Assembly: GCA_965238005.1 (NCBI GenBank)
Contig: OZ250165.1
Span: 1,696,001-1,760,000, forward strand
From: Longimicrobiales bacterium
Lineage (GTDB): Bacteria; Gemmatimonadota; Gemmatimonadetes; Longimicrobiales; Gaopeijiaceae
Reading direction: 5' to 3'
DNA length: 64,000 nucleotides
In this document: positions 18,239 to 56,599 of the stretch, piece after piece
Layout: each line of letters opens with the position of its first letter
Position numbering within the stretch: position 1 is the first letter of the stretch
Notes under the pieces: generated by a model
What the model saw: the letters and a program-made list of their open reading frames with translations, nothing else
Databases searched by the model: none
Told to the model about the DNA's origin: nothing
Translations under genes and position numbers: made by a program

Positions 18239-18273
18239 ACCTGAATGTCCGAGCCGAGCGCCTCACCGCCGCT

Positions 18274-18662
18274 CTGAACAGCGCACCTGATCGTTGACAC
18301 AATGGTGCCAGCTGATGGTTAACAGATTGGGTTACGTCCTGTGTTACCGTGGGTGTCGCAAATGACGAAGAGTTCTTCGTCAAACCACCCGAGGGTAGTG
18401 GGTCCGAAGTAGACCTGCCACAGAGCGGGACCGATGGGTTCGAGCCCGATGAAGTCGTTGCCCAGAGCTGAGCTGACGTTGATCCAACGGGAGTGCCAGC
18501 GGATCCCTCCGTTCGTAGAAACCTTTCGGACCTCGAAGTGCTCGGGGTACTCGAGCGGAGGAAGGGTCTCAGGGTAGGCTTTAGAGGCAGATCGGTAGAC
18601 GGAGTCGGGAGTCGCATCGTCGAGAGCCTCGTGCGGCCGGATGTGATTGAAGATGTGGAGGA
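18274..18662 (-). mobile_element. IS481-like transposase 3' remnant truncated by IS3
   Basis: FNHIRPHEALDDATPDSVY...VRKVSTNGGIRW; near-identical remnant at 44220-44414. Confidence 0.7.
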
Positions 18663-21600: not shown

Positions 21601-21745
21601 AGGTCTGGCACGGAACAGGTGGAGGGATAACTTGGGCGTGTGAGGGGACCGCCCCTTCCTTGCACGACAGTTCTACCGGCCGCATTCGCTTTCGCCGGGG
21701 TCACGGTCATCTTAAAGGACTAGGGTGACGACTGGAGGTTCAAAG

Positions 21746-23098
21746 ATGACAGGTCGCACAGGCGTACCCGGTGGGTTGGAGCTCGGCATGCTTGCAATCG
21801 TCCTCTGCGCCCCACATCCCGGTTCGAGCCAAGACGTGCAGCAAACCTCTTGCTCGGATATCAGCGTGTTGAGATCGGTGGAAATCCTGGTCTCGTGTGC
21901 CACCACCGGGGACGAGCTCGCTCAGTTCCGCCTCGGGCTGATGTACGATCACGGTTTGGGGGTGCCCGAAGACGATGTTGAAGCAGTCCGCTGGTTTCGG
22001 CTAGCGGCAGAGCAAGGGCTTGCTGAGGCTCAACACAACCTCGGATTCCACTACGCAAACGGTGAGGGCGTTTCCGAAGACGATGTCGAAGCAGTTCGCT
22101 GGTACCGATTAGCGGCAGAGCAAGGCGACGCTAGGGCTCAAAACAACCTCGGATTCCAATACAGAAACGGTTATGGCGTCCCCGAAGACGACGCCGAGGC
22201 CATTCGCTGGTATCGATCAGCGGCAGAGCAGGGCGACGCTATGGCTCAATACAACCTCGGGAACATGCACGCCATCGGGGAGGGCGTTCCCGAAGACGAC
22301 ACCGAGGCAGTCCGCTGGCTTCGGCTAGCCGCAGAGCAAGGCCATGCTCGAGCTCAGTCGAATCTCGGGATCATGTACGCCGACGGTGAGGGCGTTCCCG
22401 AGGAGGCTGCCGAGGCAATCCGTTGGCTTCGGCTGGCTGCTGAGCAAGGGCTTGCTCGGGCTCAATACAACCTCGGGCTCATGTACGCCAACGGGGAGGG
22501 CGTTCCTGAGGATGATGCCGAGGCAGTTCGGTGGCTTCGGCTGGCCGGTGAGCAAGGCTATGCTAGGGCTCAATACAACCTCGGGAACATGTACGCCAAC
22601 GGTGAGGGCGTTCCCGAGGATGATGCCGAGGCAGTCCGTTGGTATCGGCTGGCCGCTGAGCAAGGGCTTGCTCGGGCTCAATACAACCTCGGGCTCATGT
22701 ACGCCAACGGGGAGGGTGTTCCCGAGGACCATGCTGAGGAAGTTCGGTGGCTTCTGTTGGCTGCTGAGCAAGGCTATGCTCGGGCTCAATTCAACCTCGG
22801 GAACATATACGCCAACGGTGCAAGTGTGCCCGAGGATGATGTTGAGGCAGTCCGTTGGCTTCGGCTGGCTGCTGAGCAAGGGCTTGCTCGGGCTCAATAC
22901 AACCTTGGGAACATGTACGCCAACGGGGAGGGCGTTCCCGAGGACTATGTCCTCGCATATGAGTGGTACGACATCTCCGCGGCCCAAGGAAATGAGCTCG
23001 CGCAGAAGAACAAAGAGATAATCGTGCAGCGGATGACCCGCGAGCAGATCGCCGAGGCCCAGAGGCTTTCCCGCGAGTGGCTCGAACAGCATCGCTGA
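21746..23098 (+). CDS. Secreted Sel1-like repeat protein (10 repeats of 36 aa)
   Basis: AQYNLGxMYANGEGVPEDxxEAVRWxRLAAEQG repeated. Confidence 0.95.
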   Translation: MTGRTGVPGGLELGMLAIVLCAPHPGSSQDVQQTSCSDISVLRSVEILVSCATTGDELAQFRLGLMYDHGLGVPEDDVEAVRWFRLAAEQGLAEAQHNLGFHYANGEGVSEDDVEAVRWYRLAAEQGDARAQNNLGFQYRNGYGVPEDDAEAIRWYRSAAEQGDAMAQYNLGNMHAIGEGVPEDDTEAVRWLRLAAEQGHARAQSNLGIMYADGEGVPEEAAEAIRWLRLAAEQGLARAQYNLGLMYANGEGVPEDDAEAVRWLRLAGEQGYARAQYNLGNMYANGEGVPEDDAEAVRWYRLAAEQGLARAQYNLGLMYANGEGVPEDHAEEVRWLLLAAEQGYARAQFNLGNIYANGASVPEDDVEAVRWLRLAAEQGLARAQYNLGNMYANGEGVPEDYVLAYEWYDISAAQGNELAQKNKEIIVQRMTREQIAEAQRLSREWLEQHR

Positions 23099-23280
23099 GT
23101 TTGGAATCTGCGTCCTAAATGGGTCGGGCGTACTGCCCGACCTCGTCGGAGCCGACCTCGGCCAGACGAAGCTAACTGAGTGCGAATCTCGGCGAGGCGA
23201 AACTGGGAAGTGGATCCGGGGACGTATAGATTGGACTTCTTCGTAGCGCACGATTAGGGGGTTGCCTTGTGGCTTCTCCC

Positions 23281-23308
23281 TTGACAGGGGGCTTCTGGCG
23301 ATTAGCGT
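23281..23308 (+). promoter_or_regulatory. Putative sigma70 promoter
   Basis: TTGACA (23281-23286), 16-nt spacer, TAGCGT (23303-23308). Confidence 0.55.
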
Positions 23309-23360
23309 TGTTCTTTGGAGGATGGGTCACAAAACAGATGTGCGTAAAAGGACGCTGGTC

Positions 23361-23432
23361 GTGATACTCAACAGTTGTTGTTGCCGATGTTCTTGTCCGA
23401 GCCCGGTGGGGTGTCGGGGAGACGTCGTATAG
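23361..23432 (+). CDS. Cys-rich leader peptide 1 (VILNSCCCRCSCPSPVGCRGDVV)
   Basis: GTG start 8 nt after AAAGGA (alternative in-frame ATG at 23322); 6 Cys codons; TAG at 23430. Confidence 0.75.
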   Translation: MILNSCCCRCSCPSPVGCRGDVV

Positions 23433-23460
23433 GCATACACGCGACTGGATTCCCTGAAGC

Positions 23461-23488
23461 GCCACCGGAGACATTCGGTGGCTTTTTT
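23461..23488 (+). terminator. Attenuator terminator 1
   Basis: GCCACCGGA-GACA-TTCGGTGGC plus T6; 5' arm can alternatively pair with leader sequence 23403-23420. Confidence 0.85.
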
Positions 23489-23509
23489 GTGAGGATTATT
23501 TCCCAGATC

Positions 23510-23542
23510 AAAAAGGCCATCGGGTTTCGCCGCTGGCCTTTT
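23510..23542. terminator. Hairpin with A and U tracts between the two attenuators
   Basis: AAAAAGGCCA...TGGCCTTTTT. Confidence 0.55.
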
Positions 23543-23639
23543 TGTTCGAACCGGGTAGGACAGGCAGCGGAAGAACTGGAAAACTTAGGACGAGGTATTC
23601 GAAGGCGTGCGGTTCCATGAAGATCTGGAGGTTTTGGAG

Positions 23640-23720
23640 ATGACTCCACGGACGGCCATGTGTTGTTGTTGTTGTTGCACGGTAACGCCTAGAGAGGGGC
23701 GCGTTCCGACGAGTCGTTGA
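23640..23720 (+). CDS. Poly-Cys leader peptide 2 (MTPRTAMCCCCCCTVTPREGRVPTSR)
   Basis: GGAGG 8 nt before ATG; six consecutive Cys codons at 23661-23678; TGA at 23718. Confidence 0.85.
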   Translation: MTPRTAMCCCCCCTVTPREGRVPTSR

Positions 23721-23744
23721 GAAGAAACCAAGACTCAAGCGAAC

Positions 23745-23777
23745 GCCGCGGCCCCTCGAGGGTCGCGGCTTTTTTTT
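23745..23777 (+). terminator. Attenuator terminator 2
   Basis: GCCGCGGCCC-CTCGA-GGGTCGCGGC plus T8; 5' arm can alternatively pair with 23694-23706. Confidence 0.9.
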
Positions 23778-23829
23778 GGGTCTCAACTCTGGAAGAAAGC
23801 ATGTTGAAATTGAAATCGGAAGGCAGCAG

Positions 23830-24528
23830 ATGACTGCGGCGACAGCGGGTATCGAAGACGTGAGATGGATCAACGAACGGCTCGAGGGAGCACATCCTTC
23901 GGACGCCATTCGCTGGGCCGTCGAGAACGTAACGCCCGGGCGGCTGATCGTGGCTTCTTCGTTCGGGTCCACGGGGATGGTGAATCTTCACCTGCTCGCG
24001 GAGATCGCGCCTCAGGTGCCCGTTGCATTCGTGGACACGCTGTACCACTTCCCTGAGACCCTGGAGCATGCCGAGCGGGTGAAGGCACACTATGGCCTCG
24101 ATGTGCGCGTCTACCGGCCCGCCGCGTCACGTGCGGCGTTCCAGGCGAGGTACGGGGAGCGGTTGTGGGAACGTGACTTGGAACTCTTTCATCGACTCAC
24201 GCGGGTCGAGCCCATGAAGCGGGCCCTCCGTGGCGTGGAGGGATGGATCACCGGGCGGCGCCGGGACCAGGCAGCCAGCCGTGCCGCTCTGGCCCACGTG
24301 GAGGTTGGGGATCGCATCAAGATCAACCCGCTGGCCTCTTGGCCGGCCGAAGAGGTTTGGTCCTTCATCCGCGCGAACGGGGTGCCGTACAACCCGCTCC
24401 ACGACCTCGGCTACCAGAGCCTCGGCGACCAACCTCTGACAACGCCCGTTTCCGAGGAAGAGCACGAGCGGGCCGGTCGGTGGAGGGGGAGCCAACGTTT
24501 GGAATGCGGCATACACGCCCTGACGTAA
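23830..24528 (+). CDS. cysH: Phosphoadenylyl-sulfate (PAPS) reductase, copy 1
   Basis: SSFG, VDTLYHFPET, GRRRDQ, ERAGRW, ECGIH; GGAAGG before ATG 23830. Confidence 0.92.
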   Translation: MTAATAGIEDVRWINERLEGAHPSDAIRWAVENVTPGRLIVASSFGSTGMVNLHLLAEIAPQVPVAFVDTLYHFPETLEHAERVKAHYGLDVRVYRPAASRAAFQARYGERLWERDLELFHRLTRVEPMKRALRGVEGWITGRRRDQAASRAALAHVEVGDRIKINPLASWPAEEVWSFIRANGVPYNPLHDLGYQSLGDQPLTTPVSEEEHERAGRWRGSQRLECGIHALT

Positions 24529-24556
24529 AGCCTCATGCGGCACACGACTCAACGTC

Positions 24557-24607
24557 GCCGACCGGCGACCTGGATTCTCATAGCCGACCGGCGACCTGGA
24601 TTCTCAT
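24557..24607 (+). repeat. 25-bp tandem duplication just past the cassette end
   Basis: GCCGACCGGCGACCTGGATTCTCAT present twice. Confidence 0.85.
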
Positions 24608-24728: not shown

Positions 24729-25031
24729 ATGGCCCGGCTAGCCTCAAGAGCCGGCCAGGAAAAGTACATCGTCGACGGGACGCGGGGCGAGTACTGGCTC
24801 CCCGAGGAGATCTGGAACGAAGTCTGGGGTGTCATTGACGCAATAGCGAGGAATCACCGCTGGACGACGGCCGTGAAACCCGCACAGCGGGCCGCCATCG
24901 AGAGGCTGAGAGAGGTCCTGCTACACGTCGAGCAGAGCGGACTCGATCTCGCCACGATCGATAACCAGCAGCTGATCCGAGAACACCCGGGATGGCAGCA
25001 GGCCCGCGCTGCGGCCCCCGTAGGCCTTTGA
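24729..25031 (+). CDS. Hypothetical protein
   Basis: 100 aa ORF with protein-like composition. Confidence 0.5.
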   Translation: MARLASRAGQEKYIVDGTRGEYWLPEEIWNEVWGVIDAIARNHRWTTAVKPAQRAAIERLREVLLHVEQSGLDLATIDNQQLIREHPGWQQARAAAPVGL

Positions 25032-25329: not shown

Positions 25330-25692
25330 CTACGAGCCAACCGCGAAACTCCATGTCTCTGTTATCAACCCATCAATCATCAGTACGGCCACGTACGACC
25401 CACGGGGGAGGCTGGGGAAGGCTACGGCAACGTTTGTGCCCGCCTGGATATGGCCAGTATCTGTACCGGCTACCCGGCCTGATAGCTGCTGTAGAATGTT
25501 CACGGTGTATATCTTACCGCCGTACCCGACGATCTTCACGGCCACCACCTGACCGGTGCCGAAGTTGTGCATTCGTGGTGCTGATAACTCCGCCCAACGA
25601 GCCCGGTCGGTCGTGAACATCGCCTTCGTCGCACAGCCGGTGACCAAGAATACACTCAGGAACACGACTTGCCATCCAGCATGCCCTTTCAC
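25330..25692 (-). CDS. Putative lipoprotein
   Basis: Hydrophobic signal ending in a VTGC lipobox. Confidence 0.55.
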   Translation of the reverse strand: MKGHAGWQVVFLSVFLVTGCATKAMFTTDRARWAELSAPRMHNFGTGQVVAVKIVGYGGKIYTVNILQQLSGRVAGTDTGHIQAGTNVAVAFPSLPRGSYVAVLMIDGLITETWSFAVGS

Positions 25693-25889: not shown

Positions 25890-26011
25890 CAGACTGGGCG
25901 AACTCCACCATCCGCGCCTTGAACTCCGGCGGGTACCGTCCTCGGGTCCTTGGCATCGTGACACCTCCTGTACCTCAGTGTGGAAGTGTCCATCAAACCG
26001 GGCAAACTCCA
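25890..26011 (-). mobile_element. IS3-family left end with an orfA stub
   Basis: TGGAGTTTGCCCGGTTTGATGGACAC terminus; MPRTRGRYPPEFKARMVE. Confidence 0.75.
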
Positions 26012-26264
26012 CTCCAGGCACCTCGCCGACGCGTGGCTGCGGAGGGTAGAAGGGATTGCCGAGCTTGAGCCTCAGAAGGGAAGCCTCTGGCATGCATACA
26101 GGCGCAAGTGGGCCACTGAGAGAAAGCACCTTCCCGATGTAGACGTAGCTGCGGCTGGCGGCTGGAAGGGCACTGAGAGCCTCAAGACCGCCTACCAACA
26201 AGCGGACGAGGCCACTATCTTGCGTGTCGTCCTTGAGGCGGCTGAGTTGAGGGAAGCGAAGTGA
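26012..26264 (+). pseudogene. Tyrosine integrase C-terminal fragment next to tRNA-Pro
   Basis: HAYRR box, GGWK...AY catalytic region; 5' part removed at the IS end. Confidence 0.75.
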
Positions 26265-26361: not shown

Positions 26362-26435
26362 CGGGGCGTGGCGCAGTCCGGTAGCGCGCCTGCTTTGGGA
26401 GCAGGAGGTCCCCGGTTCGAATCCGGGCGCCCCGA
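26362..26435 (+). tRNA. tRNA-Pro(TGG)
   Basis: Complete cloverleaf CGGGGCG...CGCCCCG-A; anticodon arm CCTGC-TTTGGGA-GCAGG. Confidence 0.96.
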
Positions 26436-26526
26436 CTGATGTAACTGGTTGCTAGTATCAGCGTTACAGGAAACTCCTCTACGAGATTCTCGAGAGGGGT
26501 CTCTATGTTTCTCTCTTCGGCTGACG

Positions 26527-27936: not shown

Positions 27937-28513
27937 ACTTCGACCCTCCTATCTCCGATCAAGACATCCCCCATGATCGTTCCATCCCCAATTATGACGG
28001 TAAGGGTAGCCAGAACAAAAGCCCTTTCACGGGTCGGGGGATAACTTGAGGGGGAGGACCAAGGCGGTCAACATAAAGCCTTACGCCAGCGTTTGGGGGT
28101 CAAGGGAAGACAGCTGGAGCCGTTGGAGGACTGGGATCGCGATCTCTGAGCCGGAGGGGGCCTGCTGGGGCAGGCGGTCTCTATGTTTGTCTCTATGTTG
28201 GGGACGAGATTGGTGGTGTTTGGAGGCTCGTCTGACCGATGAGAGGATGACTAGACTCCATCCTCTCGAATCGTGAGCTGGCGGTCTCTGGCGCGACAGG
28301 AGCTGAAGCCACCAAGACCAGGGGCCAATGCCATGATCCAGCTGAGACAGCTAGCCCGGTGGGTTCTCGGAACGGACGAGGCCATCAGGAGACCGGCAGC
28401 GGATCGGCTTGCCCCTCTTTGGGAGCGATAGAATCGGGTTGCCCCCCCCGGCCGCTCCCCCCGGCGGTCTGGCATCAAGTATCTGCGGGAATTCGTTAGG
28501 GTGCGTGCCCTAG

Positions 28514-30115
28514 GAGTCTGCGCCGCAGAAGCACAGCTGACTGAGCCGAATGGTCATCGAGCCGTCCGCGGCGAGGCGGATCCGGGTGATTGGGAGGTTG
28601 AGGACTTGTGTCTGCGACGGATCGGGAGAGCGGAATGGATGCGTTGGGGGGGGCAAGAGAGCTACGAGAGCCCTCGCGCCGGCAGATGCGGGTGAACCCT
28701 CGTGCAGTCATGCCGCCTGAAGGGTGTGCAGCCGCTTCACATTGAGTGCCAGGCACACGAGGGTCCACTCGGCCCGGACCTTCTCGAGGCCCCGGAAGCT
28801 GAATCGTCGAAAGCCCATCACTTCCTTGATCCAGCCGATGGGCGCCTCGGCCTGCGACTTTCGCCGTGCGTAGCGTCTGCGGCCATCTTCGCTCGCCAGC
28901 TTCTCCGCCATGCGGACTTTCGCCGGATATTCCTCCTTGTCAACCGTGGGGGCGGCCTTGCCCTCCCGGGCCAGCGCCACATACCCGTCGATGTCTCGCT
29001 CTTCCAGTTCCTCGAGATCCCGCTCGTTGCAATAGCCCGTGTCCGCCAGCACCTGCGCCGGCGTCTCGCCGTACGCTTGCGCCACCGCGTCGACCATGGG
29101 CACCAGCTGGCCCTGGTCGCTCGCGTTGTCCGTCACCTCGGCCCCGACCACCAGCTGGTTCTCCCCCTCCACGACCGTCTGTGCGTTGTAGCACTGCTGG
29201 AACCCCTCCGAACTCGTCTTCATGATCCGGCTCTCAGGGTCCGTGAAGTTGCTCTGCGCCGCCTCGTCCGGCTCTCCGTACTCCCGCTTGTAGGGCCTGC
29301 CGCCCTTCGGGTTGCGCGTCTGCCCCGGCTTGCGGCCCCGTGCGTCGTCCGCCGCTCTCTGCTCGGCTTCCAGGCGCGCCTTCGCCTCCCGGATCGCCGC
29401 CAGCCGGTCCTCGCGCCGCTTGAGCTCCTCCGGCACCTCGTCTCCGCATGCTTCCTCGCCGTAGCGCTCGTCTTCCGCTTCGTCCACCGCCTCGGCCCTC
29501 TCCAACAGCCCCCGGATCTCCGCCTCCAGCCGAGGCTCCCCGGTCACCATCCGGCCGTAGCTCATCGCCTTGCGCTTGTTCGCGTTCGCCCGAACCTTCG
29601 TCCCGTCCACCGACACCCTGCCAAGCCCCGCCAGCCCCAAGGCCCGCGCGAGCATCACCACCTCCACAAACACCGCCCGGAAATCCCCGAGATGGCGCTT
29701 GCGGAACTCGCACAGCGTCCGGTGCTTCGGGAAGTTCTCCGCCGCCAGCATCCGAAACGCGACATCCTCCTCCAGCTTCCTCGCCATCTTCCGCGACGAG
29801 AAGGTGCCCGTCGCATACGCGTAGATCAGCACCTTGACCATCATCCGAGGGTCGTACGGCGAGTTGCGCCGCCCGTCCCCCCGGTACCGCCCGTAGAACG
29901 CGCTCAGCTCCACCGCGTCCACCAGGTCGCTCACATGGTGCGCCAAATGACCCTCCGACACCCACTCCCGAAGATCCGGAGGCAGCAACAACATCTGCTC
30001 CGGATCGTACGGTCGAAATGTCGTTCCCATTCACCCCCCTCGGTGATCCGCAAGCCTTCCCAATGCCTTCGCTACCACCAAAGATAGCCGCCGCAGGGTT
30101 CTGCGGCGCAGACTC
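28514..30115 (-). mobile_element. IS1182-family element, copy 1
   Basis: IR GAGTCTGCGCCGCAGAA; CTAG duplicated on both sides. Confidence 0.92.
28708..30030 (-). CDS. IS1182-family transposase
   Basis: YDPRMMVKVLIY, VDGTKVRAN, NFTDPESRIM, LADTGY. Confidence 0.92.
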   Translation of the reverse strand: MGTTFRPYDPEQMLLLPPDLREWVSEGHLAHHVSDLVDAVELSAFYGRYRGDGRRNSPYDPRMMVKVLIYAYATGTFSSRKMARKLEEDVAFRMLAAENFPKHRTLCEFRKRHLGDFRAVFVEVVMLARALGLAGLGRVSVDGTKVRANANKRKAMSYGRMVTGEPRLEAEIRGLLERAEAVDEAEDERYGEEACGDEVPEELKRREDRLAAIREAKARLEAEQRAADDARGRKPGQTRNPKGGRPYKREYGEPDEAAQSNFTDPESRIMKTSSEGFQQCYNAQTVVEGENQLVVGAEVTDNASDQGQLVPMVDAVAQAYGETPAQVLADTGYCNERDLEELEERDIDGYVALAREGKAAPTVDKEEYPAKVRMAEKLASEDGRRRYARRKSQAEAPIGWIKEVMGFRRFSFRGLEKVRAEWTLVCLALNVKRLHTLQAA

Positions 30116-30128
30116 CTAGGGGAGAGAT

Positions 30129-44219: not shown

Positions 44220-44414
44220 TCTGAACAGCGCACCTGATGGTTGACACAATGGTGCCAGTTGATGGTTAACAGATTGGGTTACGTCCTGTGTTGCCGTGGG
44301 TGTCGAAAATGACGAAGAGTTCTTCGTCAAACCATCCGAGGGTAGTGGGTCCGAAGTAGACCTGCCACAGAGCGGGACCAATGGGTTCGAGCCCGATGAA
44401 GTCGTTGCCCAGGG
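44220..44414 (-). mobile_element. IS481-like 3' remnant, copy 2
   Basis: Near-identical to 18273-18467. Confidence 0.7.
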
Positions 44415-45496
44415 CCGAGACGCTCCAGAGCAAGGCCCTGCGCGGGATGTTCCACGCCTGGTTGGGGATCTGCCTGTATTTCACGCAACGATTGGAGGAA
44501 TCCTACCGCACGTTACAGCAGGCCCTGGTCCTGGGCGAAGAGGCCGCCGACAAGCGCGTGATCGGCTACGCCCACACCTGGCTGGCCATGACCTGCTCCA
44601 ACCTGGGCCGGTTGCGCGAAGGACTCGCGCTCGGGAAGCGGGCCCATGAGATCGCTCAGACCATGCCAGAAGACGACTACCTGCATTTCAAGTCCCTGGC
44701 CACGACCGGCATGAACTACTACTGCATGGGCGAGGTGACGCACACCCTGCAGGTGGGTCGGCAACTGGTGGAATACGGGGAGCGGCACGGGAACCCGCGC
44801 GGCCTCCTATTCGGCCACTGGATAATCGCCACCGGCCATTGCAACGCCGGGGATTTTCCAGGGGCGATAGCCGCCTCGAAGCAGGCCATCCAGGTCTCCA
44901 GAGACCCCTTCTATCTCCTGCTCGGCCAGGCCACTCATGGGATTAGCTGCACCTTGAACGGTCAGGTCGATCCCATGTTCGGGGAGGTGGTCAGCCGCCT
45001 CAGAAACCAGGGTCTCGAATTGTCCCTCAGTTGGGCGGGCGGATTCCACGGACTTGGACGGATCATCGAGGGACGGATGGGTGAGGGCATGAAGATGATC
45101 GAGGAGGCCTCCCGAAATAGCTTGGTAAGTGGAAACAGGTTTTTCCATCACGTAAACGAGATGCTCAAGGGCAACGTGTACCTGAAAATAGCGACCGGGG
45201 AACCCCCGCCACCGGCCTTGCTGCTGAAGAATCTGGGCTTTCTCCTCCGGCACCTGCCCTTCGCCGCCCGCCGGGCGGAGACCCTGCTCGGAGGGGCCGC
45301 CGAGTACTTTGCAGAGGTAGAGGCTCACGGTTTCCGCGCCCAGGCACTGTTGGGTTTAGGACTCTTGCACAAGGCCAAGAAGCGCAGGGGTAAGGCCAAC
45401 GAATGCCTGGCCGAGGCCGAGGGCCTGTTCGAGCGCATGGGGGCCGAGGTGTTCCTCCGACAGACCCGGGAGACGTTGGCAGAGTTATCCCCGTGA
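44415..45496 (+). pseudogene. TPR-rich C-terminal part of a larger ATPase/cyclase-type protein, 5'-truncated
   Basis: Helical repeats; ORF starts inside the IS remnant. Confidence 0.6.
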
Positions 45497-48568: not shown

Positions 48569-49168
48569 CGTGTCGTCTCGGTTCGGTAAGCCCTCAGGCG
48601 TCGTATACAGCATTATGCTACAGTGTGGTATAACTGTGCAAGGCGTGCGACTGGCCGATGGTCCTACCATCGAGGTCTACATGTTTTTCTGCATGTTGGC
48701 CGGGAATCAGTCTCGGATCCGGTTTGTGAACTTTTTCCGCGCTTGCGCATCTCGCCTCGCGACCCAAACTGTGCTCAGAAACAAAGTTTAGGAAACGGTA
48801 TGGGCAGTCGAGAGTACTTGGGTAGGGGCTAGTCGCTTCCGAGGTGACAGATCCGTCGAGCGGGCGACGTGCCACGCACAACTACCGCGTCCTGCCCGCG
48901 GGTGACGATGCCCTGGCGCGATCTTGGGTCTTGCTTGAGCGCCTTTGGGCTGGGCTCGCGAGGGAGCCGGCATGAAACCGCCCGCCGTTGCACGCGCGCT
49001 GGTCCGGCTCATCTCGAACCCTGAGGACCGTGCCGCGCTGATCCAGTTGACCACGGGCCCCGTAGGGGGTTGCCTTGTGGCTTCTCCCTTGACAGGGGGC
49101 TTCTGGCGATTAGCGTTGTTCTTTGGAGGATGGGTCACAAAACAGATGTGCGTAAAAGGACGCTGGTC

Positions 49169-49240
49169 GTGATACTCAACAGTTGTTGTTGCCGATGTTC
49201 TTGTCCGAGCCCGGTGGGGTGTCGGGGAGACGTCGTATAG
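49169..49240 (+). CDS. Cys-rich leader peptide 1, copy 2
   Basis: Same sequence as 23361-23432. Confidence 0.75.
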   Translation: MILNSCCCRCSCPSPVGCRGDVV

Positions 49241-49268
49241 GCATACACGCGACTGGATTCCCTGAAGC

Positions 49269-49296
49269 GCCACCGGAGACATTCGGTGGCTTTTTT
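49269..49296 (+). terminator. Attenuator terminator 1, copy 2
   Basis: Same hairpin plus T6. Confidence 0.85.
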
Positions 49297-49447
49297 GTGA
49301 GGATTATTTCCCAGATCAAAAAGGCCATCGGGTTTCGCCGCTGGCCTTTTTGTTCGAACCGGGTAGGACAGGCAGCGGAAGAACTGGAAAACTTAGGACG
49401 AGGTATTCGAAGGCGTGCGGTTCCATGAAGATCTGGAGGTTTTGGAG

Positions 49448-49528
49448 ATGACTCCACGGACGGCCATGTGTTGTTGTTGTTGTTGCACGGTAACGCCTAG
49501 AGAGGGGCGCGTTCCGACGAGTCGTTGA
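49448..49528 (+). CDS. Poly-Cys leader peptide 2, copy 2
   Basis: Same sequence as 23640-23720. Confidence 0.85.
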   Translation: MTPRTAMCCCCCCTVTPREGRVPTSR

Positions 49529-49552
49529 GAAGAAACCAAGACTCAAGCGAAC

Positions 49553-49585
49553 GCCGCGGCCCCTCGAGGGTCGCGGCTTTTTTTT
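49553..49585 (+). terminator. Attenuator terminator 2, copy 2
   Basis: Same hairpin plus T8. Confidence 0.9.
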
Positions 49586-49637
49586 GGGTCTCAACTCTGG
49601 AAGAAAGCATGTTGAAATTGAAATCGGAAGGCAGCAG

Positions 49638-50336
49638 ATGACTGCGGCGACAGCGGGTATCGAAGACGTGAGATGGATCAACGAACGGCTCGAGGGAGCA
49701 CATCCTTCGGACGCCATTCGCTGGGCCGTCGAGAACGTAACGCCCGGGCGGCTGATCGTGGCTTCTTCGTTCGGGTCCACGGGGATGGTGAATCTTCACC
49801 TGCTCGCGGAGATCGCGCCTCAGGTGCCCGTTGCATTCGTGGACACGCTGTACCACTTCCCTGAGACCCTGGAGCATGCCGAGCGGGTGAAGGCACACTA
49901 TGGCCTCGATGTGCGCGTCTACCGGCCCGCCGCGTCACGTGCGGCGTTCGAGGCGAGGTACGGGGAGCGGTTGTGGGAACGTGACTTGGAACTCTTTCAT
50001 CGACTCACGCGGGTCGAGCCCATGAAGCGGGCCCTCCGTGGCGTGGAGGGATGGATCACCGGGCGGCGCCGGGACCAGGCAGCCAGCCGTGCCGCTCTGG
50101 CCCACGTGGAGGTTGGGGATCGCATCAAGATCAACCCGCTGGCCTCTTGGCCGGCCGAAGAGGTTTGGTCCTTCATCCGCGCGAACGGGGTGCCGTACAA
50201 CCCGCTCCACGACCTCGGCTACCAGAGCCTCGGCGACCAACCTCTGACAACGCCCGTTTCCGAGGAAGAGCACGAGCGGGCCGGTCGGTGGAGGGGGAGC
50301 CAACGTTTGGAATGCGGCATACACGCCCTGACGTAA
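49638..50336 (+). CDS. cysH: PAPS reductase, copy 2
   Basis: Identical to copy 1 except for one Q/E change. Confidence 0.92.
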   Translation: MTAATAGIEDVRWINERLEGAHPSDAIRWAVENVTPGRLIVASSFGSTGMVNLHLLAEIAPQVPVAFVDTLYHFPETLEHAERVKAHYGLDVRVYRPAASRAAFEARYGERLWERDLELFHRLTRVEPMKRALRGVEGWITGRRRDQAASRAALAHVEVGDRIKINPLASWPAEEVWSFIRANGVPYNPLHDLGYQSLGDQPLTTPVSEEEHERAGRWRGSQRLECGIHALT

Positions 50337-50721
50337 AGCTTCATGCGGCACACGCCCACCAAATGACAGGCGCATGCTTGTCGTTACGCAAGAGACAGCC
50401 AGCTCGGTAGGTTAGGGTGGGGAACACGGCCACGCCCTGTAGAGAAGGGCACGCCAGTGGTTGCTTGCTCCGGCTACCGGCACCGACCTACTGCGAGCCC
50501 CGCTGGCTAGAGCTCGCGACTTCAGATAACGCCGCGCTCCCACTCGGGCCCTCGGGTACGCTTCGCTGGTTGGGCGAGTAGGTAGCAGAGTAGGCTGCGG
50601 GCCTGGCGCTTTGGGGCACCGTGTCTCGCTCTTCACTCGACGCGCCGCCGGGCAAGTGTTCGCTCCTCGCGTGCGCGGCGTTATAGATTGACCACCCCCT
50701 TGTGAATGCTGGCAGGTGGCC

Positions 50722-53446: not shown

Positions 53447-54759
53447 GCTCGCTTCCTTTCTTCCAAGAGATCGCTGATCCGCATGACTCAAAGCTTCCCG
53501 GCTCGGGAGTGGACCGCAAGAAGTTTGGCCGACCGCGTACCGGTGGTCACCTGATCGCGAAGCCAATCTCCCTCAGCCACTCCTCCGGCAGGGACCCCGT
53601 ACAGCGGCCCACGAGCGACTGGATTCGCTGGATCTCCGCCTCCGAGGGGCTCACCGCGCTACGGTTCGCTTTCTCAAGCCACTCGCCTACGGCCCGTCGC
53701 GCTGCGATGGCGACCGGCTCCTGTCCCTCAAGCACGCGTCCCACCCCTACACCGTCCCCACCTACCCTCGCTAGGCAGCGGTCGCCATGTGGTCTGGGAC
53801 TCGGAGACACCTGGGTTCGGCCTTCGAGTATATCCGAGTGATCGCAAGGCCTTCGTCCTCTCGTACCGATTCCAGGGACGGAAGCGGCTGCTCACGCTCG
53901 GGACCTACGGTGTTCTCACCGTGCAGCAGGGTAGGGAGGCGGCCCGGAAGGCTCTCGGCCAGGTAGCTGCGGGCCATGACCCTCTCGAGGGTCGGAAGGA
54001 CTCTCGGCGGCATCGGGTGACACTCAAGGAGCACGCCGAGGAGTGGTCTGAGGCGGAGGGTAGGGTGCGGCGGAGGTCCTGGTTTAGCGGGATGACGAGA
54101 GACGCCTGGACAAGCACATCCTACCAGCTTTGGGCTCGAAGGCGTTGGAATCCATCACCGAACGGGACTGCGAGCGACTCCACGCGAAGGTGACCGAGCG
54201 AGGTCCGGTAAAGGCGAACAGGACGCTCGAGCTCCTCCGCCTGGTCCTGAATGTGGCGATGAACGATGGGCTGATTGATAGGAACCCCGCCGCCCGATCT
54301 TGGCGTTCGAAGCGTGGAAATCGAGAGCGGAGCCGGACCCGCTACCTCAAGAAGGACGAGTTCCAGGCGTTCACCAAGGCGGTCGAAGAAGAACAGAACC
54401 CGTATGTGCGAGCCGTGGTCTGGCTCCTGCTGCTCACGGGCGCACGGTCACAGTCGGAGCTTCTACGACTACGGTGGGATGGCATCGATTGGGACGGTGG
54501 GCTGATCGCCCTCCACCGCTCGAAGACCGACGACGTACTCACTCTGCCGTTATCGGATGCAGCTCGCGAGATCCTCGCCTCGTTACCTCGCGAGGCATCG
54601 AATCCCTACGTGTTCCCAGGTAGGGCACCCGGGACACATCGGATGACGATCAGGAAGCCATTCGAGCGGATCCGTGAGAAGGCGGGGCTGACAGGCGATC
54701 GGTCTGTAACCCTGCATGACCTGAGGAGAACCGCCGGTTCGCTCATGGCCCAGGCTAGG

Positions 54760-56362
54760 GAGTCTGCGCCGCAGAAGCACAGCTGACTGAGCCGAATGGT
54801 CATCGAGCCGTCCGCGGCGAGGCGGATCCGGGTGATTGGGAGGTTGAGGACTTGTGTCTGCGACGGATCGGGAGAGCGGAATGGATGCGTTGGGGGGGGG
54901 CAAGAGAGCTACGAGAGCCCTCGCGCCGGCAGATGCGGGTGAACCCTCGTGCAGTCATGCCGCCTGAAGGGTGTGCAGCCGCTTCACATTGAGTGCCAGG
55001 CACACGAGGGTCCACTCGGCCCGGACCTTCTCGAGGCCCCGGAAGCTGAATCGTCGAAAGCCCATCACTTCCTTGATCCAGCCGATGGGCGCCTCGGCCT
55101 GCGACTTTCGCCGTGCGTAGCGTCTGCGGCCATCTTCGCTCGCCAGCTTCTCCGCCATGCGGACTTTCGCCGGATATTCCTCCTTGTCAACCGTGGGGGC
55201 GGCCTTGCCCTCCCGGGCCAGCGCCACATACCCGTCGATGTCTCGCTCTTCCAGTTCCTCGAGATCCCGCTCGTTGCAATAGCCCGTGTCCGCCAGCACC
55301 TGCGCCGGCGTCTCGCCGTACGCTTGCGCCACCGCGTCGACCATGGGCACCAGCTGGCCCTGGTCGCTCGCGTTGTCCGTCACCTCGGCCCCGACCACCA
55401 GCTGGTTCTCCCCCTCCACGACCGTCTGTGCGTTGTAGCACTGCTGGAACCCCTCCGAACTCGTCTTCATGATCCGGCTCTCAGGGTCCGTGAAGTTGCT
55501 CTGCGCCGCCTCGTCCGGCTCTCCGTACTCCCGCTTGTAGGGCCTGCCGCCCTTCGGGTTGCGCGTCTGCCCCGGCTTGCGGCCCCGTGCGTCGTCCGCC
55601 GCTCTCTGCTCGGCTTCCAGGCGCGCCTTCGCCTCCCGGATCGCCGCCAGCCGGTCCTCGCGCCGCTTGAGCTCCTCCGGCACCTCGTCTCCGCATGCTT
55701 CCTCGCCGTAGCGCTCGTCTTCCGCTTCGTCCACCGCCTCGGCCCTCTCCAACAGCCCCCGGATCTCCGCCTCCAGCCGAGGCTCCCCGGTCACCATCCG
55801 GCCGTAGCTCATCGCCTTGCGCTTGTTCGCGTTCGCCCGAACCTTCGTCCCGTCCACCGACACCCTGCCAAGCCCCGCCAGCCCCAAGGCCCGCGCGAGC
55901 ATCACCACCTCCACAAACACCGCCCGGAAATCCCCGAGATGGCGCTTGCGGAACTCGCACAGCGTCCGGTGCTTCGGGAAGTTCTCCGCCGCCAGCATCC
56001 GAAACGCGACATCCTCCTCCAGCTTCCTCGCCATCTTCCGCGACGAGAAGGTGCCCGTCGCATACGCGTAGATCAGCACCTTGACCATCATCCGAGGGTC
56101 GTACGGCGAGTTGCGCCGCCCGTCCCCCCGGTACCGCCCGTAGAACGCGCTCAGCTCCACCGCGTCCACCAGGTCGCTCACATGGTGCGCCAAATGACCC
56201 TCCGACACCCACTCCCGAAGATCCGGAGGCAGCAACAACATCTGCTCCGGATCGTACGGTCGAAATGTCGTTCCCATTCACCCCCCTCGGTGATCCGCAA
56301 GCCTTCCCAATGCCTTCGCTACCACCAAAGATAGCCGCCGCAGGGTTCTGCGGCGCAGACTC
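54760..56362 (-). mobile_element. IS1182-family element, copy 2
   Basis: Same IRs as copy 1; CTAGG on both flanks. Confidence 0.92.
54955..56277 (-). CDS. IS1182-family transposase
   Basis: Protein identical to 28708-30030. Confidence 0.92.
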   Translation of the reverse strand: MGTTFRPYDPEQMLLLPPDLREWVSEGHLAHHVSDLVDAVELSAFYGRYRGDGRRNSPYDPRMMVKVLIYAYATGTFSSRKMARKLEEDVAFRMLAAENFPKHRTLCEFRKRHLGDFRAVFVEVVMLARALGLAGLGRVSVDGTKVRANANKRKAMSYGRMVTGEPRLEAEIRGLLERAEAVDEAEDERYGEEACGDEVPEELKRREDRLAAIREAKARLEAEQRAADDARGRKPGQTRNPKGGRPYKREYGEPDEAAQSNFTDPESRIMKTSSEGFQQCYNAQTVVEGENQLVVGAEVTDNASDQGQLVPMVDAVAQAYGETPAQVLADTGYCNERDLEELEERDIDGYVALAREGKAAPTVDKEEYPAKVRMAEKLASEDGRRRYARRKSQAEAPIGWIKEVMGFRRFSFRGLEKVRAEWTLVCLALNVKRLHTLQAA

Positions 56363-56599
56363 CTAGGGTGCCCTTGTACCACATCAGGGCCGTCCTGGGG
56401 CACAAGAGCGAGGCTGTGACGCAGGTCTATGCGCGGCTGGGAGAGGACGACACCAAGGGAGCGGTGGACGTTCTCGGCTCGTCGGTTTCACGACTTCAGG
56501 AGGTGCCCGATTCTGTAGACACGGATGCCCTGGACTCGGAGGAGGCAGCGCTCCGGGCACGCCTCGCAGAGATTGAAAACACGCGTCAGGGGGCTACCG

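Follow-up and report, generated by a model that had tools for sequence, protein, structure and literature searches.

A candidate ribosome-mediated transcription attenuator with two cysteine-codon leader ORFs and three predicted terminators in series upstream of cysH in a Longimicrobiales bacterium

The window analyzed here is a stretch of 64,000 nucleotides (nt), positions 1,696,001 to 1,760,000 of contig OZ250165.1 (assembly GCA_965238005.1), from a Longimicrobiales bacterium of the phylum Gemmatimonadota whose source is described as an uncultured soil- or sediment-type bacterium. Coordinates are those of the window unless given as genome positions. Our subject is the 5' leader of a cysH gene, in which an earlier note, made from the sequence alone, had proposed two cysteine-sensing attenuators, each built around a short cysteine-rich open reading frame (ORF). 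The assignment of the downstream gene as cysH is borne out by a match to the PAPS_reduct family. Between the promoter-like hexamers and cysH, on the same strand, lie two ORFs preceded by Shine-Dalgarno (SD)-like sequences, and between the leader ORFs and cysH lie intrinsic terminators, two called by a terminator scan and a third that is conserved:

23281..23308, plus strand: probable promoter, with TTGACA at 23281-23286, a 16-nt spacer and TAGCGT at 23303-23308; function predicted
23361..23432, plus strand: leader ORF 1, 23 codons, GTG start, TAG stop, AAGGA 9 nt upstream
23461..23488, plus strand: terminator 1 (T1), a hairpin of 9 pairs at 23461-23482, then T6 at 23483-23488; called by the scan
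23510..23543, plus strand: terminator 2 (T2), an A-run, arms at 23515-23524 and 23530-23538, and a U-run; read from the sequence
23640..23720, plus strand: leader ORF 2, 26 codons, ATG start, TGA stop
23745..23777, plus strand: terminator 3 (T3), a hairpin of 10 pairs at 23745-23769, then T8; called by the scan
23830..24528, plus strand: cysH, phosphoadenosine-phosphosulfate reductase family, 232 amino acids; PF01507 PAPS_reduct, E 1.3e-46

Reading of the sequence confirmed both Cys-rich ORFs at exactly the positions first given for them; their frames are parts of longer stop-to-stop ORFs in the ORF listing. Leader ORF 1 has Cys at codons 6, 7, 8, 10, 12, and 18, five of the six being UGU. Codons 6, 7, 8, 10, and 12 (23376-23396) would form the regulatory set, whereas codon 18, which is Cys here, is Tyr or His in four relatives and is therefore probably not regulatory. 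Its start codon, GTG here, is ATG in 11 relatives. Leader ORF 2, with GGAGG at 23627-23631, 8 nt before its ATG, contains six consecutive Cys codons at 23661-23678 (five UGU and one UGC). The first leader begins about 50 nt past the promoter hexamers and the second more than 300 nt past them. The TTGACA element of the original proposal is present, and the TTGACA/16 nt/TAGCGT spacing is kept in nine related loci inspected (with TAGTGT in one), though a consensus promoter scan made no call at 23281..23308, because the -10 hexamer matches at only three of six positions. The gene itself apparently stands alone as a monocistronic unit: no other cys gene was found in the neighborhood of 23830..24528, and Pfam assigned no family to the small ORFs downstream of it at 24729-25031, 25330-25692, and 25980-26264.

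Judged from sequence and comparative data, the cysH 5' leader is likely to be a ribosome-mediated transcription attenuator sensing charged tRNA-Cys, with two nonhomologous sensor ORFs and three intrinsic terminators in series. The composition of the two ORFs is the first indication of this. Cys accounts for 0.83% of the codons in 2222 long ORFs of this genome versus 6 of 23 codons in leader 1 and 6 of 26 in leader 2. We scanned the 4.84-Mb genome on both strands for short ORFs (60 codons or fewer) that contain four or more Cys codons in a stretch of 8 and are followed by a T6 run no farther than 160 nt past the stop. Five matches were retrieved, namely, leaders 1 and 2 in each of two copies of the cysH unit (see below) and a single ORF before a siroheme synthase/sulfite reductase operon. 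The onset of the U-run lies 48 to 50 nt past the stop in all five. The sulfite reductase leader has 27 codons, seven of them Cys, is followed by a hairpin and T8, and precedes the siroheme synthase gene and then sulfite reductase; all 10 full-length orthologous loci of the family have it, 9 of them with a T-rich run. Of sulfate assimilation, the leaders at this locus would gate only cysH; the sulfite reductase operon has a leader of its own, and no Cys-rich leader occurs within the 450 nt before the ATP-sulfurylase gene (a 575-amino-acid ORF at genome positions 3258232-3259959). A whole-genome blastn search at word size 7 found copies of leaders 1 and 2 only at the two cysH units, which argues that leader 2 was not copied from the leader of another gene in this genome.

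A CysH-homologue search with one genome per species yielded 23 cysH loci, 17 from Gemmatimonadota and 6 from an outgroup of Cyanobacteria, Actinobacteria, and Gammaproteobacteria. A Cys-rich short ORF lies within 800 nt upstream of cysH in all 17 Gemmatimonadota loci versus none of the 6 others; with the U-run rule dropped, the genome scan gave 135 such ORFs on 9.7 Mb of strand, a background of 0.011 per 800 nt. The leader peptides before Gemmatimonadota cysH genes fall into at least five unrelated classes, whose sole common trait is the in-frame Cys cluster, and a T-rich run follows 44 to 61 nt past the stop in 22 of 23 leaders. Codon choice points the same way: the 23 leaders contain 130 Cys codons, of which 104 are UGU, versus a UGU share of 27% in the long ORFs of this 65% G+C genome, a preference for the rarer synonymous codon that fits selection for (slow) decoding rather than for the peptide. 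At two distant Gemmatimonadota loci, a Cys/Met-rich leader ORF starts about 8 to 10 nt past a TTGACG-17-TAnnnT promoter-like site, and these leaders may be leaderless or nearly so, unlike those of the window.

The class to which leader 1 belongs was assembled from the cysH loci and from a DNA search that covered 401 genomes of the order, and comprises 12 Gemmatimonadota genomes, in each of which leader 1 and its terminator recur before cysH. In-frame conservation of the Cys codons had been set beforehand as a point on which the attenuator idea could fail. Codons 6, 7, 8, 10, and 12 of leader 1 are in frame and invariant in 12 of 12 genomes, and the Cys run of leader 2 is kept in frame in the 5 genomes that have this ORF. 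In one relative, leader 1, T1, and T2 are intact but are followed by sequence that resembles neither leader 2 nor cysH and runs into a different ORF of 323 codons, as if an insertion or a rearrangement had occurred within the leader. A metagenome scan with a 15-base conserved core proved unspecific, a Cys leader being present in 1 of 80 loci among the matches listed, on the same contig as locus L018.

In 10 of the 12 genomes, the peptide encoded by leader 1 hardly varies, an observation that might suggest instead that the short ORFs are genes for functional Cys-rich peptides (metal-binding, redox, or precursors of modified peptides) with terminators of their own, cysH being transcribed independently. 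However, this invariance is matched at the nucleotide level, including third positions needed for the helices described below, and the other classes encode peptides that have nothing in common but their Cys codons. Moreover, such ORFs accompany only cysH and sulfite reductase, the vicinity contains no genes for modification or export, and the consensus promoter scan called no promoter between T3 and cysH, where no promoter-like site is seen. We regard this explanation as extremely improbable.

Under the attenuator interpretation, the fate of a transcript would be decided at the terminators. On the plus strand, the terminator scan, which covered 22900-24100, gave exactly two matches, against a mean of 0.9 in shuffled sequences, so that the two hairpins with T6 and T8 runs described at the outset, T1 and T3, were both recovered at their sites. 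Two is not the full count, since a third terminator, T2, occupies 23510-23543; it is absent from the scan list because its loop is longer than the scan permits. The T1 hairpin has an energy of -15.1 kcal/mol, with 95.3% of cells paired across 12 genomes; the T2 stem has -19.3 kcal/mol and was found in 12 of 12 aligned genomes; and T3 has -20.8 kcal/mol, with 98% of cells paired across 5 genomes. We also considered T2 as the terminator of a convergent gene and rejected this, the opposite strand being without a gene. The alternative pairings of the leader 1 region involve four further segments:

23402..23420, plus strand: segment 2, the 5' strand of antiterminator 1, within leader ORF 1 between the Cys codons and the stop
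23451..23468, plus strand: segment 3, the 3' strand of antiterminator 1, overlapping the 5' arm of T1
23474-23488, plus strand: segment 4, the 3' arm of T1 with its U-run, complementary to segment 5
23510-23524, plus strand: segment 5, the A-run and 5' arm of T2, complementary to segment 4

The predicted leader 1 antiterminator that overlaps the 5' arm of T1 is borne out by the analysis. Its complementary blocks (23403-23409 with 23462-23468 and 23414-23420 with 23451-23457) were confirmed, and the duplex of segments 2 and 3 (2:3) has an energy of -32.9 kcal/mol versus -19.5 +/- 3.2 in 300 dinucleotide shuffles of the ORF part, none of which was as good. In eight of nine loci, its z score lies between -3.3 and -4.8, with 0 to 1 of 300 shuffles as good; at the ninth, the terminator was misparsed by the terminator finder. 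The strands of antiterminator 1 are paired in 95.6% of cells in the 12 genomes. We then folded the leader with a ribosome that protects 12 nt 3' of the A-site codon. With the ribosome on the first Cys codon, the minimum-energy fold contains 23402-23420/23451-23468 and the mean pair probability of T1 is 0.05, versus 0.73 with the ribosome at the stop. Among the matches listed, five relatives gave terminator probabilities of 0.75, 0.10, 0.00, 0.51, and 0.21 for the first position and 0.66 to 0.99 for the second, so that the fold behavior is similar in four of the five. Thus, by folds and duplex energies, leader 1 has a mutually exclusive antiterminator that uses the 5' arm of the terminator and whose other strand would be freed or masked by ribosome position. 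A stall at codon 12 would already cover the start of segment 2, and the effective codons would therefore be 6 to 10.

A second beyond-chance complementarity connects T1 to T2. The duplex of segments 4 and 5 (4:5) has an energy of -24.7 kcal/mol versus -8.5 +/- 2.7 in 300 shuffles, none of which equals it; it is also more stable than the T2 stem, and its z score is -3.4 to -6.0 in 11 of 12 genomes. In the constrained folds, 2:3 plus 4:5 is isoenergetic with 2:3 plus T2 (-65.5 versus -65.6 kcal/mol). Because segment 5 is made before the segment that follows it, segment 6, 4:5 would form first whenever segment 4 is free. Across the 12 aligned genomes, 92.6% of 418 cells are paired in the "on" structure (2:3 plus 4:5), compared with 39 to 60% when it is slid, and 87.3% of 252 cells in the "off" structure (T1 plus T2), compared with 28 to 59% when it is slid, figures that indicate compatibility with the two structures and not proof of them. 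Four pairs of the "on" structure are changed on both sides, including one U-A to C-G change within 4:5, a level that 14 to 15 of 500 shuffles match.

Leader 2 presents a comparable, less clear-cut arrangement:

23694..23757, plus strand: candidate antiterminator 2, in which 23694-23706 pairs with 23741-23746 and 23751-23757

In both leaders, the coordinates place the 5' antiterminator strand between the Cys run and the stop, as the earlier note had it. Antiterminator 2 encloses a conserved 5-bp hairpin (23711-23715 with 23732-23736) over the stop codon, its duplex has an energy of -27.4 kcal/mol (z, -2.1), and 97.8% of its cells are paired in five genomes. Occupancy of any of the six Cys codons of leader 2 leaves its 5' strand free. 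Leader 2 lies behind leader 1 in 5 of the 12 genomes, this one and 4 others, and remnants of it are discernible in 2 more. In one of these, its ribosome-binding site, start, and first Cys codons are fused to sequence past T3, and in the other, its 5' flank is fused to the 3' half of T3. These deletion remnants argue that the tandem form is ancestral to the group and that leader 2 was lost several times by deletion.

Several observations weigh against the attenuator interpretation, some of them against the whole of it and some against its second half. The covariation for leader 1 is thin, its four double-changed pairs being equalled by up to 15 of 500 shuffles, because the aligned sequences are close. 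The related genomes are nonindependent samples, and the structures tested on them were derived from this genome, which favors them over the slid controls. The fraction of the terminator 5' arm that is paired before the 3' arm exists was matched by 35 of 100 shuffles for leader 1 and by 86 of 100 for leader 2. This measure did not separate real from shuffled sequences for any leader, because G+C-rich arms pair easily, and we relied on duplex energies instead. The sulfite reductase leader lacks a significant antiterminator (49 of 300 shuffles as good), as do several other leader classes (z, -0.07 to -1.4; 7 of 22 rows). A ribosome at the stop would mask only the 3' part of each antiterminator strand, full masking being an assumption, and both the translation of the ORFs and the RNA ends at 23488, 23543, and 23777 are predicted from the nucleotide sequence alone. 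For leader 2, the complementarity between 23694-23706 and 23741-23757 that had been pointed out is real and conserved, yet it exceeds chance only moderately, with 7 of 300 shuffles as good here and 45, 1, and 3 of 300 in three relatives. No covariation was seen in the leader 2 structures (antiterminator 2 and T3) in five genomes. Folding with ribosome-masked segments, which switches leader 1, leaves T3 in place here: at equilibrium, its pair probability is 0.80 to 1.00 in every ribosome state. Finally, 7 of the 12 genomes have lost leader 2, and 2 of these retain clean deletion remnants, so that it is dispensable.

The points on leader 2 would be expected if only leader 1, with T1 and T2, worked as a cysteine attenuator, leader 2 and T3 being in decay, constitutive (an added terminator that reduces basal expression), or a sensor by another route, such as translation-dependent pausing, and in no case a genuine second antitermination switch. 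Against this, where leader 2 is present, its start, SD-like purine run, Cys run, distal ORF, and terminator are all kept, with a mean column identity of 89% across five genomes, the distal part of the ORF being more conserved than the N-terminal codons. Its Cys run varies from four to eight codons and only by whole TGT units, and the distance from its stop to the U-run, 49 nt, equals that of leader 1 and of the sulfite reductase leader. The T3 switch flips at equilibrium in one relative, which has a weaker terminator, and cotranscriptional folding, which equilibrium folds ignore, favors the upstream helix. We consider it unlikely that leader 1 alone works as an attenuator.

The distal parts of both leaders are conserved at the nucleotide level beyond what the peptides need, which could also be understood if a trans-acting factor (protein, small RNA, or metabolite) picked between the hairpins and the Cys codons were incidental or secondary. 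However, a search of 22500-24500 with the Rfam 15 covariance models at E values up to 10 retrieved no relevant family; the best scores there are at most 20.7 bits, far under the gathering scores, and are all terminator-like chance matches. Further, only the Cys cluster and the terminator are common to the at least five cysH leader classes and the sulfite reductase leader, and UGU is preferred against genomic usage. A trans-acting factor of this kind thus appears very improbable. A T-box or riboswitch was likewise rejected, as no conserved structure resembling a specifier or a ligand pocket is present and only the Cys codons are constant across leader classes.

On the preferred interpretation, in which ribosomes on the leader ORFs decide between the helices, the system might operate as follows. 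With plentiful cysteine, the ribosome would reach the stop of leader 1 and cover the 3' half of segment 2, allowing T1 to form; polymerases that pass T1 would meet T2 and then T3, which would form as well, the ribosome on leader 2 also being at its stop. When Cys-tRNA is scarce, the ribosome would stall at codons 6 to 10 of leader 1 (23376-23390) with its front edge upstream of segment 2, which could then pair with segment 3 and remove the 5' arm of T1. The freed segment 4 would pair with segment 5 and disarm T2, so that one stall would disarm two terminators. A second ribosome stalled on the leader 2 Cys codons (23661-23678) would allow 23694-23706 to pair with 23741-23757 in place of T3, and with all terminators disarmed, cysH would be transcribed. 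Three conditional terminators in series would be expected to give low leak and a steep response.

More specifically, one can conceive of a cascade of two sensors and three terminators, in which a ladder of helices (2:3, 3:4, 4:5, and 5:6) passes the signal from T1 to T2, leader 2 retests it as an evolutionary plug-in, and the whole 1.3-kb unit is copied as a cassette in a region rich in insertion sequences (IS). Read-through would then be the product of several conditional steps, and the response very steep with low leak. We put this fuller version forward tentatively, as a possibility that we would not rate as high as even.

The second copy of the unit lies farther downstream in the window:

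49063..50354, plus strand: second copy of the unit, with promoter, both leaders, three terminators, and cysH (49638-50336)

The 1292-bp unit at 23255-24546 is 99.85% identical to it, with two differences (at 24142 and 24532), neither of them in the leaders. Both cysH copies are apparently monocistronic, and both lie in a region with integrase genes and an IS. The latter, 1.6 kb long with a minus-strand DDE_Tnp_1 transposase, occurs at 28510-30121 and 54755-56368; the 4.84-Mb genome has 45 full-length copies at 99.8 to 100% identity, which points to a recent, large IS expansion. A tRNA-Pro(TGG) gene is found at 26362-26436, 1.8 kb behind the first cysH copy, and behind the second, at 53789-54786, an integrase gene apparently split into two ORFs (Arm-DNA-binding and catalytic domains) adjoins the IS copy. 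These settings suggest that both cysH copies reside in island-like, rearranged DNA. A CysH homologue was found in only 7 of 41 near relatives; the gene seems to occur patchily in the group and may be mobile. In one genome of the same genus, 95% complete, the siroheme synthase/sulfite reductase operon and its Cys leader are present, and no CysH homologue was found with this query.

Classical leader-peptide attenuators are those of the trp, his, leu, thr, ilv, and pheA operons of Proteobacteria, and the his leader, with its chain of more than two alternative helices, bears a likeness to the present locus. The candidate shares with them a translated-type leader ORF rich in codons for the end product and a terminator opposed to a ribosome-dependent antiterminator. 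It differs in that cysteine would be sensed, that the target is sulfate assimilation, that the host belongs to Gemmatimonadota, that the 5' strand of the antiterminator lies inside the ORF upstream of the stop, and that it strings together two unrelated sensor ORFs and three terminators. Nor is it related in sequence to the proteobacterial leaders, no Rfam match having been obtained. The proposed mechanism is classical attenuation in a variant form, introducing no new principle and overturning none; the present case contributes the relay that links two terminators, a second sensor with a documented history of gain and loss, and a duplicated cassette.

The principle of leader-peptide attenuation is restated by Canestrari et al. 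(2020, bioRxiv 10.1101/834739), who, in the accessible part of that report, state that upstream-ORF-mediated attenuation for cysteine was undescribed until then. The mycobacterial polycysteine short ORFs described there are leaderless and act in translation, the Cys tract pairing with the SD region of the next gene, and a transcription reporter was insensitive to cysteine. Common to both are the upstream run of Cys codons, a gene of the cysteine pathway, and a response through ribosome occupancy, which is predicted for our case. Unlike the mycobacterial ORFs, the leaders here lie in a 5' untranslated region, have SD-like sequences, and are each followed by a hairpin and U-run, and by inspection, the cysH ribosome-binding site (23800-23829) contains nothing complementary to the Cys tract. 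The locus does not belong to the mycobacterial class of leaderless translational attenuators.

In Actinobacteria, candidate Cys leader peptides before cys operons were identified by comparative genomics (Seliverstov et al. 2005, PMC1262725); the accessible sections of that paper report no conserved terminator hairpins and suggest Rho. These leaders likewise are short ORFs with Cys codon runs before cysteine metabolism genes, whereas the present leaders have conserved intrinsic terminators and carry their Cys codons in the first half of the ORF, not near the stop. Closer in its parts is the uORFC-8-2 motif before cysS in Rhodobacterales, described, in the available portion of Brewer et al. (2021, PMC8632094), as a predicted attenuator with two Cys codons and an intrinsic terminator. 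Both combine Cys codons in an upstream ORF with an intrinsic terminator in a predicted ribosome-mediated attenuation. The motif, however, is a single unit before a tRNA synthetase gene of Alphaproteobacteria, whereas the present leaders have five to six putative regulatory Cys codons each, stand in tandem before a biosynthetic gene, and come from another phylum. A tandem arrangement is known from the mgtCBR operon of Salmonella, where the two ORFs reportedly answer different signals, ATP and proline; here, both leaders carry Cys codons, and the same signal would therefore be read twice. As far as the accessible text of Lee and Groisman (2012, PMC3641672) goes, that system has two short ORFs in one long leader, with stem-loops deciding transcription into the coding region.

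In the literature searched, which consisted of papers readable without a subscription, we found no published leader-peptide attenuation from Gemmatimonadota and no published cysteine attenuator with intrinsic terminators for cysH or sulfate assimilation, so that the earlier note's remark that the arrangement is undescribed holds within that literature. Within the same scope, cysteine stands out as the one biosynthetic amino acid without documented terminator-based leader-peptide attenuation of its biosynthetic genes. The full set of classical parts is present and conserved here, in a phylum with almost no cultured members, on two separate sulfate assimilation transcription units. The design would also be uncommon in that the relay helix would put a backup terminator under the same ribosome signal and a second, independent Cys sensor would follow in series. 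If confirmed, it would supply an annotation rule for sulfur regulation in Gemmatimonadota metagenomes (a short ORF that contains a Cys-codon cluster and is followed, about 50 nt past its stop, by a U-run), a natural example of attenuator stacking to sharpen a response, and compact cysteine-responsive parts.

Metatranscriptomes contain related sequences. Four RNA-library runs hold contigs that are 88 to 99% like the leader and cysH and come from relatives. In one run, a contig over leader 1 and T1 has a depth of 17.2 versus 2.5 to 4.2 for the cysH pieces, though contigs cannot show level, strand, or ends, and as DNA may be present in the libraries, we draw no conclusion on expression or termination. 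One RNA-library contig joins 23511 to 23745, which corresponds to a relative without leader 2.

The surroundings of the two units contain other repeats. The gene upstream of the first leader, at 21725-23098, codes for a 457-amino-acid protein of ten Sel1 repeats, and its DNA comprises nine tandem copies of a 108-nt unit that are 61 to 76% alike. Directly behind the first cysH copy, just outside the duplicated unit, a 25-nt tandem repeat with one base between the copies occupies 24557-24607 and is absent behind the second cysH copy. A further repeat of 200 nt with 96% identity is present at 18273-18472 and 44220-44419, and its spacing of 25.9 kb, near that of the cysH units and the IS copies, may point to a larger segmental duplication of greater age whose copies have since diverged.

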